This document shows, one piece after another, positions 16,759 through 50,447 of a DNA stretch of 64,000 nt; position 1 is the first letter of the stretch; every line of letters begins with the position of its first letter. The DNA is taken from positions 26,040,001 to 26,104,000 of the forward strand of contig OZ024750.1 in the NCBI GenBank assembly GCA_964016885.1, in the 5' to 3' direction. Position numbers and translations under genes: made by a program. A model generated the notes under the pieces. It worked only from the letters and a program-made list of their open reading frames with translations. It did no database searches and had not been told where the DNA came from. The DNA comes from Eledone cirrhosa (taxonomy: Eukaryota).

Positions 16759-16822
16759 ATGTCCTCCCTTTCTATTGCTGGATTTATTATATTATTAACA
16801 TGGCAGGTCACTTTAGCAGCTG
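16759..16822 (+). CDS. Exon 1 (signal peptide) of EGF-repeat type I membrane receptor
   Basis: gcaATG; MSSLSIAGFIILLTWQVTLAA; strong phase-1 donor G|gtaaga matching the phase-1 EGF exons. Confidence 0.75.
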
Positions 16823-17239
16823 GTAAGATAAGTGATTTGTTATTCTATTCACTTATTGAATACTTTGATTTCTTGTCTACGTCAAATATTTTTCTCATTT
16901 TCATTAATACTGTCATGTTGTCACCTGATCCTCCAACCTAACAGTATTGTTATACTTTGGGAGGGTCATGTTGCCAATAAGAAACACACGCACCAGTTGT
17001 TTCACTCCATTTTATTATAAATTAAATTTATAAATTTAAGAATTTATAAATTTCGGTTGGTTGGTTGTACAGTGTGACTGGGGATTCTTCTCTTTGTTTG
17101 TGCCTCTCTATATATATATGTTTGTGCCTCTTCTATATATATATGTCTCTTACTCCACTATATATATATATATATATATATTTGTGTCTGTGTGTGTGTG
17201 TGTGTATGTGTGAGCATGTGTATGTACACATGTGTATAT

Positions 17240-18580
17240 GTCATCATTATCATCATCATTTCACGTCCGCTTTCATCTGTAAGCAAGTTTTGCGTGAGTT
17301 ACATAGAACAAATTAGTACTGAAGCGTGTCTTCTGACCAATCAGTCAGGCCAAGGTCACATCGAGTTGTTTTTGACACAAACTGAAGGGTCCTACTCACC
17401 CTTTGTTTAGTAAGCTTTCTACGGCCGTATCCCTTTCTTACTACCAACTGCTTTGCAGCCTGTACTGATTGATTTTATTGTGTAGATCAGCAGGACTAAG
17501 GAGATGGTGTTTTTAAACAACTAAAGGTTTATCTTAATTCTTTTATGTATGGGATCTACAGCGGGTGAACTTCCACTCACCAACCATTCTGGAGAGGTTG
17601 ACCATAAATCAAACTGCAGAACCCTTCAAATGTGGAGAAGGGACAATAAGGGAGGGAGATAAGTATGAAGTTATAATTATGTGTGGGGGTTTGTTTGGCA
17701 AGACAATGAGTAAGGGGTAGCAGTTACTGATTAGTGTATGGGGTGTATTGGTGTGAGGGATGTGGTCAACATGGTGGGGGTTGTGGCGTGATGGAGAGAT
17801 AAGAAGCGGGTTTAGGGATGAGTAAGAGTTAGGGATAGCGGATTAGTGTACTGGGAGTGGGGCATGTAGTGAAGGATGTGGTCGATAGAGAGATGTGGTC
17901 GTGTTAGAGAGATGGGTAAGGAATTGTGAGAGATAAGGTTTGCTAATAGTGGTGGAGTGAACAATGGGGAGAGAAAGCAGCTACTATTGGCCAATGGTGA
18001 GGATATCTAAGGTGTCGAGTGTTTGAGTGGTTATCGAGTGTATATGTGTAGTGGATGCCGCATTGGGGAGAACAGATTGGGAAAGTAATCATAGGAGGGA
18101 GGGTGTACTTCATGGATGGGTCAGGTCATATTTTATGATTCTGGTCGGGTCTTCATTAACACAGCATAGCGCCAGCCACATCTGCCACATCTCTTGTGAG
18201 TCCATCGATTTCACTTTGTGCACCTTATAGAACTCCTGCCCAGCCTTTTCTGGCATATCGAACACAGCCATCTCCCTGATTGTATCCCCTTCTTGTCCTC
18301 TTTCGTGCTTAACCCTTTTGCCTCTGATGCGATTAGTTTTAGGCTTTTCAACTCTAAGTTCTTGCATGTTTGAAGTTTTGTCCTTTACTATCCTACGGAT
18401 TCAGTTGAGGTACTCAGTACAGTTTTGAAATACTCAGTGAAAAGAACAGTGAAGAACAGTGATAAATAGGAGTGGAATAAGGACTGAGCCCTGGTGGACA
18501 TCGAACTGCACTTCATCACTCTACTGGCATTCAGCTATTTTATACATGGCCCAAACTGCTTTCACAAGTCATTCATCTAC
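17240..18580 (-). mobile_element. Highly degraded RTE-like LINE
   Basis: Minus-strand DVHQGSVLIPL near 18470-18503; (CAT)n tail and 3' UTR resembling 43170-43330. Confidence 0.6.
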
Positions 18581-19834
18581 ATGAAAGGTTCTCAACCCAT
18601 TTCAGCCAAACGCCCCTTTTGCCCCTCGAAATCACGAAACGCCCCCTACCCTATTTTTCCATTTGTCAATATACTACTGATTTTGATATCAGTAGATTAC
18701 TGGGGCAAATCAAGTTATGTTAGAATCTTTAAAATATACTCGTACGAATTAAATACAAAAAGTTTCAGTCCAAAATAAAAGCAAACTATTTTAAATTATA
18801 TATTTTAGAAAAACAGACGTGAATGTTCCCAAAGATTTGATCTCAGTCGAAAAAACCTTTTTTGAAAAATTCTATATTTTACTGTTAGCTGTTGTAATAT
18901 TTTGAATGGATAGACAATTCTACAATTCAAACTGCAAAGTCAAAATACAAAAGATGCAAATTATGAAGAATTTCCTACCTTTCTCTGAAATCACAAACTC
19001 AGGGGGAAAATAGACCTTGCAAAATAAAATACCTCGTATCAAAATAAAATACTTAGTAGCAACTAATGAATTGAGAAGCTTCGTGACAGTGAGAAAGAAA
19101 TATCTGTATTCCTTACATATATATACATAGATAGATACACACCTACCCATATAAACGCACGCACACACACACAGACACACACACAGACACACACACACAC
19201 ACACACACACACACACACACACACACACACACACACACACACACACACACACACACACATATACATACACATACACAAACTTCAGTGTGCGTGTGTGTGC
19301 CTTGGTTTTGGTACAGAAAGAATTTTGACTCCAGTTTTTATTGCCAGGTCAAACGCCACTGCTCTTTTTAACGACGCCAAATAACAAGGCCATATATATA
19401 TTAATTTTTAATTTTTAAAATTTTCTTATTTTACGTCTTTCATATAATTGTTCTGCATCCCCCTGCATTGAACCACCTAGGTACTTTGACATAACTTATA
19501 TATTTACTAGTATTAGTGTACATCTGTACGCATATGTTGGTAGATGTATTAATTCTCTATATTTATCTCCAAATTATTTGTTGAGCAAACTTGCCAAATC
19601 TACTGCTAATTCATTGTAGTAGTAGTAGGCTCTTGTCATAATACCACCCCACTCCTAATTGACTAACCTCAGTGTCACGTGATTGATACTTTAGAATCCA
19701 CCACTGACCAGAGATAGTGAACTTTTTCAGTGCTATGGAATTTTGTCCCCGCTAGCTTATTACATCAACTGAATAATTATTTTTATATGGGTTCCTAGTG
19801 TCCGCGCATTGCCTGGGAACTTAGCTGAGAATAG

Positions 19835-19913
19835 ACTCCCTGACGACGTAATGAATTCTCTATAGTTATATATAACTATATTTATCCCATTACAGAAACT
19901 AATTAGTTGGAGT
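19835..19913 (+). ncRNA. Type I HHR
   Basis: actcc-CTGACGA-cgtaatg...cattac-a-GAAA-ctaattag-TT-ggagt; stems I and II pair, stem III palindromic. Confidence 0.8.
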
Positions 19914-47800: not shown

Positions 47801-47917
47801 AATGCCGAATAGGAAAGTTTGGTCTCAATTGTCATAGGACATGCCAGTGTATCAACAACACAAACTGTGACCATCGAAATGGAACATGTTCAGATGAAGC
47901 TACTAAAAGTGGTATTG
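47801..47917 (+). CDS. EGF-repeat exon 8 (shortened, 6 Cys plus stalk; probable shifted donor)
   Basis: ECRIGKFGLNCHRTCQCINNTNCDHRNGTCSDEATKSGI; ancestral donor position 47936 is GG; phase-1 G|gtaaca at 47917/47918. Confidence 0.65.
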
Positions 47918-48309
47918 GTAACAATTGCCTAGAAGGGATATCATAAACTTGTTACGTATTTACTCTACACACACACACACACACACACACACACACACAC
48001 ACACACACACACACACACACCCACACACATACATACACTCACACATACACAAGCATACACTCAGACACGCACAAACGCACACACATATATATTTTTTGGG
48101 GCCTGTCTACGTGTGTGTGTGTGTGTGTTTGTGTGTGTGTGTGTGCATGTGTTTGTGTGTTTGATGTTTAATATAGAAATCAATTCTACTGGACTAGAAT
48201 AGTTTTATCCAAAGAAAACATCACGAAATGGCTTTCCTGATGATTACGTTTGAATGAAATAGTTCTAATAGTTTTAAATGTATATATATATATATATTCT
48301 ATATATATA

Positions 48310-50250
48310 TAGAACTGGTCATTCCGTATGGTCCACCTCGATGTAATATTATGGTGAGCACTCAACGTAATGCAACTCAACTGTCTTCGTTTGTGTTGTT
48401 GGTGGTGCGAGTACGGAGTTAATTATTATAGAATAACAGGAGGCTGGACTGGTGTAATTCCTTGAAAGGTTTATTATACTATGATCATTTCAATGACAGG
48501 GTTCAGTATGAATCCGGTGACATCATCAGGTATTCAGAATATAACAAAGGAATATAATAGACAAAATCCATGGGGCTGAAAATCAGAGACATGAGGACGA
48601 CCGAACATTCAGGAGCTTCTACCTCGGTCGACCGCCCCCAATTGTTTCTATACAGATGAGAGACGTGTATTTACGCTTAAACAATGAATCAATCTGTTAC
48701 AATTAATAATTTATGTCCAGTGTTACTACGTTAGCATAGCAAATTGCATTACTAATGATTTAGAATAGTGATACTTTTACTATCATGAGTGTGAATTGCC
48801 GCTGTTGAAAGATGTAGTGAACAATTAAGTTGATATAATAGACTTAAACATGCTTACGTTCAATTATATCATACCATATATAAACGCAAGCCTCTCCGAG
48901 ATATTACCATACCAAGCAAGTTAGAGGTGTAATATCTTAGACGGTTATCATAAGACCATACGTTAGGAAGTACGTCTGTAGACGCATAGCGTAAAAAATA
49001 CGCACGGGTGGGTATATTCATATATAAACATACGTACGCACGTGTTTGTACATCCTCCAATGCATATACTCGTAAATATACGCAGATACATAGAATAAGT
49101 GTACATGCACACATGGTAATACGAGGTACCTAATTTAGTTAGTACCAGTTATAAGACACAAACCCGTATTCACACGCCGTAGTGCATTTTGATAGAATTC
49201 TTTACATTTCCGGAAATATTCGTTGTTCGACCATATCTTAAAGAAGTGGAAAATTGTGAATTTTCCCTTCCTGCATGATGCGAAGTGTTCACTGCATGTG
49301 GTGTTTCTGACAGAGGGATCTCTAATTTATTTTTTATGGACCCGAACCCTATCATGTAGACCCGTTCTCAAATGTAGTATTCTTCAAGTTGTGGGCAGGT
49401 CACACAATAAATTAAGGTTTTTGTTTTGCAATTCACGCTTGCCTTAAATTTGAAAATGTCATTGTTTTAAAAGGAGATTTTCCCTCTCTTCAATGAATGA
49501 ACAAGTTCCGTATCAAGGGTTCCCGCATTTCTTAACTTGCATTGATTCATTGTCAGACGTAAATTTCGCCTCAATAAACAGTATTTTTAAAGTTAGGTGC
49601 TTGGCGTCTACTATATAGTATTTGTGAGTCTTTTATGAGTGCTTTCATTTTGGAGGACTGCTTGAGAATCGGGAGATATTGTTTAGAGTCTTTCATGATG
49701 TTGAAGTTCTGGGCTATTCTGGGCCTTGGAGATGGCCGTATTGATGAAGTTCACCGGATAGTATATTAAGGAGCTCTTTTAGTTCATATAATCTTTTTTC
49801 CTATAGTGTGGTTTGTGTTTCTATGGTGCAAATGCGTTTTGTCATATAAAAGGGAATGTTCCTTTTGGTATGTGAGTGGTGTGCCTACCGGAAATTCAAG
49901 TACTGGTGTGTGTCTGTTCGTTTGTAAAATAGGTCTGTTTTTATATTTTCCCCTTCTTTAATGATAGTGATATCCCAAAACGGTCGTCCCTTTTTGTTTC
50001 AATCCATGGTAAAATGTCTTGCTTCGTGAAGCCTGTTTATGATGAAATGGAATCTTTGTAGGTCTCCTTGGCTTCTATTAAAGAAGATGAAGCAGTCGTC
50101 TAGGTAACATTTCCAGTTGTTATTAATGTAGGTGGCAAAGTCGTGACTGAAAGCGTCTTGCAGCTGGGAATATAATTTTACCTCTAGGTGACCCAAGACG
50201 AGTGTTACATATCTTGGGGCTACTTTGGTGCCCATGGCTGTTTCTTTTGT
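48310..50250 (-). mobile_element. Degraded Penelope-like element (RT C-terminal part and long 3' region) with HHR at 48476-48533
   Basis: MGTKVAPRY..L.LG..E, YLDDCFI, YKRTDTHQYLNF; HHR atac-CTGATGA-tgtcaccggattc..gaaccctgtcatt-GAAA-tgatca-TA-gtat. Confidence 0.8.
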
Positions 50251-50356
50251 GTATGTATGTATATATATATTCCTGCGATTGTCTGTTTTTTCTTTTTTCT
50301 TTTCTGTTATTCCGAACTATATATATATATATACATAATATTTTACCTTTGAACAG

Positions 50357-50447
50357 AAATACACGGACTACCTGCCGGTTATATAGCGATACTTTTGTTG
50401 GTCCCATTTATGTTACTTGTACTTGTGATTGCAGCGGTCATGTTCAG
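50357..50447 (+). CDS. Transmembrane exon of EGF-repeat receptor
   Basis: ttttacctttgaacag|...AG|gtatgt, phase 1-2: EIHGLPAGYIAILLLVPFMLLVLVIAAVMF. Confidence 0.85.

Follow-up and report, generated by a model that had tools for sequence, protein, structure and literature searches.

To our knowledge, few receptor families have been named in cephalopod immune recognition. Among receptors with EGF-like modules, MEGF10/11, Draper and CED-1 are defined by an EMI domain together with NPxY and YxxL motifs in the tail, and we know of no large array of SCARF1 genes. According to the accessible part of a report on human SCARF1, its EGF modules alone bind modified LDL, teichoic acid competes for this binding and the receptor homodimerises through its EGF modules (PMC11563577). 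In snails, subgroup 1A of the scavenger class F-like receptors is composed of a signal peptide, an EGF region, a transmembrane (TM) segment and a small tail free of domains; its genes are clustered and adjoin lectin-bearing (1B) and lectin-plus-phosphatase (1C) relatives (PMC13712769). The three layouts cluster at a schistosome-resistance locus (PMC13712769; accessible part of PMC12297450), for which no causal gene has yet been identified (PMC13712769).

In this study, a candidate receptor gene of the octopod Eledone cirrhosa was analyzed. It lies in a window, i.e. the whole stretch of DNA under study, of 64,000 nucleotides (assembly GCA_964016885.1, contig OZ024750.1, here C10, positions 26,040,001 to 26,104,000). 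The gene is invisible to ORF-based reading. The original prediction had assembled it from ten small exons, all of which were found in place and with compatible phases, except that EGF exon 8 has no GT donor. The features are as follows, in window coordinates.

5086..5515, + strand: DSGK-repeat tail exon belonging to the upstream paralog (TM exon 2.5 kb ahead of the window)
16759..16822, + strand: exon 1, predicted signal peptide, 64 nt (21 codons), ATG start, phase-1 GT donor
26124..26258, + strand: EGF module exon 1, 135 nt, phase 1-1, eight cysteines
26449..26604, + strand: EGF module exon 2, 156 nt, with a 7-residue in-frame insertion
37022..37156, + strand: EGF module exon 3, with the same protein sequence as one exon in each of genes 3, 5 and 6
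37317..37451, + strand: EGF module exon 4, read as an exon
38956..39090, + strand: EGF module exon 5, read as an exon
39268..39402, + strand: EGF module exon 6, forming a 312-base tandem unit with exon 5
47487..47621, + strand: EGF module exon 7, read as an exon
47801..47935, + strand: EGF module exon 8, its ancestral donor destroyed (GG at 47936)
50357..50447, + strand: stalk and TM exon, 91 nt, phase 1-2, intact and hydrophobic in 20/20 C10 paralogs
50588..50606, + strand: candidate alternative acceptor that would give a 6-residue tail, its AG context present in 13/14 aligned paralogs, the two most distant among them

The signal-peptide prediction is based on the hydrophobic core visible in exon 1, the ATG and GTAAGA donor of which are intact in all 20 C10 paralogs. 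Each of the eight EGF exons has a TTTCAG acceptor, a length divisible by three and no stop codon, and a six-frame motif scan returned exactly the eight predicted modules, all on the + strand. The view that all eight are symmetric phase 1-1 cassettes holds for the seven exons with a GT donor but not for exon 8, which reads AAG followed by GGATAT at 47936. In-frame skipping is plausible for these seven exons, and four of the seven RefSeq isoforms of the closest relative are devoid of whole EGF modules. A Pfam search of the window exons matched EGF_STAB1-2 in five of the eight EGF exons, the best match, in exon 1, lying below the cut-off, and an AlphaFold2 model of EGF exon 1 from only eight alignment rows gave a pLDDT of 57.9 and a pTM of 0.31. 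No exon–exon joints were found in three public runs, which are DNA-like contigs of one sample that span introns.

The window gene is the fourth of 20 tandem genes on C10 (25.85–27.34 Mb), where 20 signal-peptide and 20 TM exons, all intact, alternate 1:1 in a nearly one-strand array, giving each unit a separate ATG exon and TM exon. The recurrence of these two exons in the same order in 20/20 neighbouring genes places the gene structure far beyond chance, and the predicted tandem arrangement is thereby borne out. Genome searches with the signal-peptide and TM exons, as the prediction had proposed, gave matches that form two arrays, the one on C10 and one on contig C2 (310–315.6 Mb); the latter has at least 20 signal-peptide matches (40 of 57 candidates being scored) and 17 TM matches, i.e. 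about 17 further genes. Judged from sequence, the window gene is an intact member of a tandem family of single-pass membrane receptors, which would comprise about 37 near-identical octopod genes on C10 and C2. The exon number of the C10 neighbours varies (13, 8, 11 and 5 in genes 3–6), and genes 4 and 5 are 96–98.8% identical over most of 48 kb, which is near allelic levels.

The repeat tail that had been predicted within the window was not confirmed, as no such repeat is present between 50447 and 64000. The tail exon of the window gene starts 702 bases past the window end (G000:C10:26104702) and encodes about 103 residues (37 Lys, 16 Glu and one Tyr), followed by AATAAA. Nor is the tail a pure repeat: after about 40 residues in the DSGK frame, a one-base loss puts the sequence into a TVEK/TKEK frame. 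The tails of the array consist of 13–180 low-complexity residues, their frame is not conserved and some are frameshifted. The expectation of a tail without tyrosine motifs was correct, with 0 NPxY and 0 YxxL in the 12 of 15 tails that were scored, the other three being read by eye; YSRM or YSRI stands directly behind the membrane in four tails. In genes 16–20 (5/20) no homologue of the tail exon was found within 9–20 kb after the TM exon; it may be located further on or may have been replaced.

EGF exon 8 lacks its seventh cysteine. One DNA contig in each of the three public runs covers the GG at 47936 with the letter unchanged; these contigs differ from the window at 47911, probably carrying the letter of a neighbouring paralog, and end 20 bases further on, so that they support the GG in the subfamily and not in this copy specifically. 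Exon 8 is likely cut short by use of an internal phase-1 donor after 47917, which would leave six cysteines and a short stalk, and donors after 47908 and after 47911 are candidate alternatives. Exons of this type number 12, one per gene in genes 1–11 and 13, and are not independent owing to their shared ancestry. Their cysteines 1–6 are kept (0/48 versus 21/161, p 0.005), cysteine 7 is missing in 9/12, and an internal GTAACA occurs in 9/12 compared with 3/69 canonical exons. Codons 30–39 show nonsynonymous variation at 25/69 versus synonymous at 1/21, and codons 40–43 are as quiet as the intron. However, among the donor-dead exons two have a stop right after cysteine 6 and one precedes a normal exon, and the internal-donor reading therefore cannot cover all 12.

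The eight cysteines are invariant in 69/69 canonical EGF exons, none of which has a stop; 0 of 64 possible cysteine-changing letters were seen, versus 130/244 at other codons. All 20 TM exons keep their frame (88, 91, 97 or 103 nt) and hydrophobicity. For the 13 of these that are 91 nt long, omega is about 4.7 (2dlnL 24), a value which, as for the EGF exons (omega 1.9, 2dlnL 16.8, 62 distinct exons), comes from short paralog alignments and can be inflated by gene conversion. In the same 13 exons, nonsynonymous variants (71/194) outnumber synonymous variants (10/67) proportionally (p 0.0007), the adjacent intron giving 41/414; for the helix alone the counts are 50/140 and 8/49 (p 0.012), and in hydrophobic TM columns third and first positions vary nearly equally (16 and 19 of 48). 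The recombination-proof column count for the EGF exons is borderline (130/244 versus 32/79, p 0.053) and no higher than in the flanking intron (p 0.22). The membrane anchor shows signs of fast adaptive change; such strong selection on a TM exon is unusual and, if it holds, suggests a mechanism of pairing or evasion within the membrane. Pairing with ITAM adaptors was considered separately and rejected, as no D, E, K or R is present in the last 21 TM residues of any of the 20 genes.

The best protein matches to the window gene were F5/8-EGF-TM-PTP proteins of Octopus sinensis and O. vulgaris (64–70% identity); at the level of the modules, the likeness to those of receptor phosphatases (RPTPs) is 60–70%, with 70% identity to an O. 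sinensis RPTP. Module spacing is shared with O. sinensis LOC115219456 (XP_036365020.1) and O. vulgaris CAI9733299.1, as well as with the SudRes1 RPTPs of B. sudanica, which are mollusc MEGF/galactose-binding RPTPs (accessible part of PMC12297450). The RPTP of E. cirrhosa itself (C2, 257.56–257.60 Mb) has 135-nt phase 1-1 EGF exons with about 70% DNA identity. A poorly resolved module tree of 44 columns grouped the array modules with those of the O. sinensis RPTP (80/87), three foreign modules falling inside this clade, and it took in no Draper module since the search pattern missed all of them. As judged from these matches, the array modules belong to the mollusc galactose-binding/EGF/PTP receptor type. 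A distant relative at C2 232.2 Mb, with 71% identity in the TM-flanking intron, has a charged tail and is preceded by an F5/8 exon; in 90 kb of that locus, nothing matches the signal-peptide exon at the DNA level. Many of the listed protein matches, mostly unnamed, have a Cys-rich ectodomain, one TM segment and a short tail. No octopus protein of the exact subfamily was found among 333 and 1 word-seeded candidates and the best 150 of 1522 profile matches.

Mollusc MEGF/GBD RPTPs have F5/8 and PTP domains, whereas neither was found in the C10 array. No F5/8 domain was detected in 599 kb of C10, including the whole of genes 3–6, although positive controls were detected; the genome-wide F5/8 search gave no matches in the C10 array and two near or in the C2 array. 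An F5/8 exon at C2 315.46 Mb may belong to the TM exon at 315.56 Mb; no array-type EGF exon was found in about 70 of 110 kb there. None of the 82 PF00102 matches lies in either array, nor was a PTP domain found there by tblastn. The genes therefore did not prove to belong to a longer known orthologue, the outcome that would have undone the original prediction: the C10 array yielded no exon for an EMI, lectin or phosphatase domain. Membership of an RPTP gene was rejected on the basis of the units' own ATG and TM exons and the 0/82 PTP matches.

The MEGF10/Draper module type that had been proposed does not agree with the Cys6–Cys7 gap, which is one residue in 14/14 and 12/12 modules of the Draper/MEGF11-type proteins P0057 and P0111, both with NPxY, whereas array modules have three residues, as seen in the seven window modules with Cys7 and in 11/11 O. 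sinensis RPTP modules. The reported absence of an EMI exon was upheld: PF07546 has at least two matches in the genome (C1 and C4) and none in the arrays, and intron 1 of the window gene contains no Cys-rich exon candidate in a scan that recovered 3/4 control exons. MEGF10/Draper orthology was rejected on the basis of the missing EMI domain, the different spacing and the lack of tyrosine motifs.

The reading that we favour, by a little more than even confidence, is that these are lineage-specific octopod receptors with an EGF ectodomain that descend from the RPTP clan, having lost its lectin and phosphatase parts, and that diversified as capture receptors in defence. Unequal crossing-over would add and remove 135-base symmetric exons, often in pairs, resulting in an ectodomain of variable module number, from about 4 to more than 16. 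Laminin-type EGF modules form disulfides 1–2, 3–5, 4–6 and 7–8 within one exon, and each EGF exon here would make one disulfide-closed unit in a long rod. The internal donor of exon 8 would drop the eighth cysteine, matching the loss of its partner, and convert the module end into a short variable stalk. Ligand would bind to variable surface residues of the modules, and the tail would anchor the protein without signalling, as expected for a tail with no tyrosine motif and no conserved frame; the role of such a receptor would be to capture or mask ligands, or else it would need a partner, for example related RPTPs, in order to signal. An immune role is likely by analogy, being borrowed from the snail receptors. 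However, selection is strongest on the TM exon, a result not expected under a simple pathogen-binding model and counting against this reading, as do the borderline column count of the EGF exons, the nearly equal variation of third and first positions in hydrophobic TM columns, the poorly resolved module tree, the missing signal-peptide match at the distant relative and the net charge of the window modules (−4 to +2), i.e. not basic, unlike the SCARF1 binding patch. A bolder but doubtful reading is octopod-specific combinatorial recognition, in which about 37 genes with skippable cassettes would be reshuffled between neighbours and the selected helix and stalk, in addition to the outer surface, would set pairing or escape from attack; if true, the array would be an RPTP stripped down into an invertebrate counterpart of paired or allorecognition receptor clusters.

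It is unlikely that the array is instead a self-recognition or adhesion code, in which cells would show subsets of paralogs or splice forms and the variable TM segment and stalk would decide pairing, as with clustered protocadherins in neurons. Such a code is disfavoured by the high omega, more typically a mark of conflict with another genome, by the lack of a shared constant exon and by the unconserved tails, with no tail exon homologue nearby in 5/20 genes. The tandem, nearly one-strand array of variable module number would suit it, together with the strongest selection on TM segment and stalk, the module skipping annotated in the closest relative and the SCARF1 homodimers (accessible part of PMC11563577), whereas a term search of the octopus brain cell atlas found no mention of MEGF in its main text (PMC9712504). 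Lower still in probability are decoys or regulators of related RPTPs, i.e. phosphatase-less copies, some of them shed or secreted, that compete for ligand or pair. The modules resemble those of RPTPs, two paralogs stop right after cysteine 6, a fast-evolving stalk would fit a cleavage site under pressure, and conceptual read-through of exon 8 reaches a stop after three more residues, giving a TM-less product of 391 residues. However, this product has 63 cysteines, one of them unpaired, compared with 62 for the internal donor; no poly(A) signal was found within 1.4 kb after exon 8, and the missing part is the lectin domain, the likely ligand binder of the RPTP. Very improbable is the absence of a separate family, the exons being scattered parts of one long MEGF/RPTP gene, or the array a product of pseudogene decay or misassembly. 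Owing to the near allelic identity of genes 4 and 5, a few copies could be false duplications, and the frameshifted tails also speak for this view; the separate ATG and TM exons of each unit, the differing exon number of neighbours and the cysteine invariance all argue the other way, as do 0/82 PTP matches and 0 of at least two EMI matches in either array and a search of 599 kb of C10 that recovered its F5/8 positive controls but gave no F5/8 or PTP matches.

As a large, young and intact array, the locus is a concrete candidate for cephalopod immune recognition, and the same kind of receptor has been mapped to parasite resistance by two snail studies. The array provides paralog-specific markers for expression and population tests. 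Furthermore, it illustrates how a receptor phosphatase may be trimmed into a receptor of modules alone, one step being a shift of splice donor by which an EGF module would become a stalk.

In comparison with known systems, the array shares tandem eight-cysteine EGF-like modules and a type I membrane layout with MEGF10/11, Draper and CED-1, but it has no EMI exon, a different Cys6–Cys7 spacing and tails without NPxY or YxxL. Human SCARF1 (PDB 8hna), like the array genes, has a signal peptide, EGF modules only and one TM segment, and a profile match gave an E value of 6e-5; however, SCARF1 has a large cytoplasmic part, short Cys6–Cys7 spacing and a basic ligand patch (accessible part of PMC11563577), and no SCARF-type large cytoplasmic region was seen in the array. 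No description of such receptors in octopus was found in the literature covered, mostly open-access texts. The array agrees with snail subgroup 1A in layout and clustering, and E. cirrhosa also has 1A-, 1B- and 1C-type layouts. The suggestion of an undescribed lineage-specific family is therefore only partly sustained: the layout is the known one of subgroup 1A, whereas the octopod expansion and its evolution look new. Compared by description, the array differs from subgroup 1A in its approximately 37 very young copies of one 135-base module, its Lys/Asp/Glu repeat tail, its donor-shifted last module and the selection measured on its TM exon, and equally likely alternatives are common descent with the snail genes and parallel loss from an RPTP-type ancestor of both.

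The window lies at C10:26040001–26104000 (C10 being contig OZ024750.1) in a genome of 3.0 Gb, and its sequence is AT-rich and crowded with microsatellites and retrotransposon remains. Exactly eight EGF-like modules, every one on the + strand, were found in it by a six-frame motif scan. Reading of exon limits and splice sites placed all ten exons of the original prediction where it had put them, with compatible phases, in the fourth (gene 4) of 20 tandem genes on C10:

16759–16822, +, signal-peptide exon
starts 26124, 26449, 37022, 37317, 38956, 39268, 47487 and 47801, +, EGF exons 1–8
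50357–50447, +, transmembrane (TM) exon

The EGF exons had all been taken for symmetric cassettes, which holds for the seven that end in a GT donor; exon 8 has GG in that position, and its cysteine 7 has been lost. The DSGK repeat at 5086–5515 is the tail of the upstream copy, and the tail exon of gene 4 begins 702 bases past the window end. At 50582–50595 the intron holds a short word that includes an AG acceptor; it is kept down to the most distant relatives and is a candidate alternative terminal exon or splicing element. The intron between the TM and tail exons holds an uninterrupted 1153-codon LINE ORF2 (55153–58614, +; endonuclease, reverse transcriptase and zinc finger), with a second, partial copy downstream (59288–60868) and related fragments at 6790–7956 and 20451–21380. 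More broken retroelement-like frames lie at 32674–34927, 51811–53767, 11946–13938 and 43578–46148, two of them carrying RVT_1; the frame at 32692 gave no Pfam match.

DNA searches located at least 20 signal-peptide and at least 20 TM exons, strictly alternating and with one unit inverted, at 25.85–27.34 Mb of C10, and at least 20 signal-peptide and at least 17 TM matches, some partial, at 310–315.6 Mb of C2, another contig of this genome; these counts are lower bounds, scoring having covered 40 of the 57 signal-peptide candidates. Distant TM-flank matches lie at 232.2 and 232.4 Mb of C2, with one further match on C1149. Genes 3, 4, 5 and 6 have 13, 8, 11 and 5 EGF exons; gene 19 shows four, and a 10 kb stretch of gene 15 at least 16. 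Since EGF exons are frequently paired, approximately 312 bases apart, and identical ones recur in adjacent genes, the sequences point to unequal crossing-over among them. Dozens of EGF exons of the same family also stand in long regular runs at C2:313.18–313.87 Mb and C10:27.236–27.252 Mb, the latter with a 2.56 kb period, which suggests members with very long ectodomains.

None of 82 PF00102 (PTP domain) matches and neither of two EMI matches falls in the C10 or C2 array, and tblastn gave no F5/8 or PTP match across the 599 kb of C10 examined, while the same F5/8 queries do detect relatives on C2. Every array unit has its own start exon and its own TM exon. Membership of the exons in a longer RPTP (receptor protein tyrosine phosphatase) or MEGF gene was therefore rejected. 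The predicted lack of an EMI exon was borne out by these matches and by a scan of intron 1 (recovering three of four control exons), in which candidates occurred only within repeat remains and microsatellites and no EMI- or EGF-like exon was seen.

A tail exon was found in 15 of the 20 C10 genes. The 12 tails scored (13–180 residues, 44–62% charged) read different frames of a single purine-rich repeat and contain no NPxY or YxxL motif; a conserved signalling role of the tail is unlikely. By eye, two of three C2 genes examined have a choice of two possible acceptors, one for a very short tail and the other for a long, charged one, and at C2:314.974–314.990 Mb the tail-acceptor region occurs in eight tandem repeats. 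In-frame skipping of EGF modules in gene 4, if it occurs, has a precedent in the O. sinensis RPTP: of its seven RefSeq isoforms, four are missing between one and three entire modules.

From 92 parsed C10 EGF exons, ten were put aside (other length or no donor match), leaving 69 with a GT donor, one with GC and 12 with a dead donor. The 69 are coding exons under constraint, as they contain no stop codon and all eight cysteines are invariant (0/64 possible changes versus 130/244 elsewhere). Codon models gave the EGF exons an omega of 1.9 (1.9–2.2 across models, final tree; 2dlnL 16.8 versus omega 1); a tree-free column count was borderline (p 0.053) and not higher than in flanking intron (p 0.22), so that support for diversifying selection on the modules is no more than modest. 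The signal is clearer in the TM exon: for 13 C10 exons of 91 nt, seven with indels being left out, omega was 4.7 (2dlnL 24), with variants at 71/194 nonsynonymous versus 10/67 synonymous and 41/414 intron positions. The excess is present in stalk and helix alike, with hydrophobicity preserved, and the signal peptide is almost invariant across paralogs.

Dead-donor exons occur once per gene in genes 1–11 and 13, always in the final module seen except in gene 1, where it is the last but one. These 12 are related by descent, so that counts among them are not independent: cysteines 1–6 are retained, cysteine 7 is missing in 9/12, and 9/12 have an internal phase-1 GTAACA at codon 39, versus 3/69 canonical exons. 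Protein-level change is fast in codons 30–39 (25/69 versus 1/21), and codons 40–43 are as quiet as intron. Spliced at the codon-39 donor rather than at the dead ancestral one, exon 8 would give gene 4 a product of 515 residues with 62 cysteines, an even number, versus 63 in the exon model first proposed. Cysteines 7 and 8 form a pair in laminin-type modules; if they do so here, the shifted donor and the missing cysteine 7 would account for each other. A stop directly after cysteine 6 in two paralogs suggests that there the exon is skipped or a soluble form is made.

We lean towards reading the array genes as a diversified set of cell-surface receptors that capture ligands in host defence and do not signal alone. 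A self-recognition code seems unlikely. That the genes are RPTP decoys is distinctly doubtful; the array exons are indeed related to such receptors, two near-identical F5/8–EGF–PTP genes lying at C2 257.5 and 261.8 Mb, the first with EGF exons read as 135 nt, phase 1-1 and approximately 70% identical in DNA to array exons. Genes 4 and 5 are 96–98.8% identical, so that some array copies are possibly false duplications; all 20 signal-peptide and all 20 TM exons of C10 are intact and TM length changes among its paralogs all preserve the frame, and artefact or decay as an account of the array is very improbable.

For the capture receptors favoured here, the kind of receptor is already known; no description of the octopod array, its TM selection or the donor shift was found among the listings of the open-access literature searched. 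The closest proteins come from Octopus, the best matches being F5/8–EGF–TM–PTP proteins of O. sinensis and O. vulgaris (64–70% identity per module). The modules had been likened to MEGF10/11 and Draper, a placement contradicted by the Cys6–Cys7 spacing, which is three residues in the array and three or four in the F5/8–EGF–PTP clan, where Draper and MEGF11 have a single residue. At C2 232.2 Mb lies a relative that has the TM-flanking intron in common and combines an F5/8 exon with an EGF type of its own and a tail rich in Glu and Lys; it shares a cluster with PTP exons. Around it, C2:230.4–233.1 Mb holds F5/8 exons at seven places and this PTP cluster, and is likely the older part of the same clan. 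Large tandem arrays of more than 25 near-identical F5/8-like exons on C20 (3.5–5.3 Mb), C27 (13.1–15.4 Mb), C16, C22 and C23 may be another expansion of lectin-domain genes.

In SCARF1, EGF modules suffice for ligand binding and dimerisation (PMC11563577), and MEGF/GBD RPTPs are reported at SudRes1 (PMC12297450). Lectin and PTP parts would have been lost from an RPTP-type ancestor, a direction that we infer, the module tree being too weak as proof. The snail LG5R resistance locus, as described in PMC13712769, has three layouts: modules only with a small tail (1A), with a lectin (1B), and with lectin and PTP (1C). With the C10 array, the C2 232.2 Mb relative and the C2 RPTP copies, all three are present in the single genome of Eledone cirrhosa.
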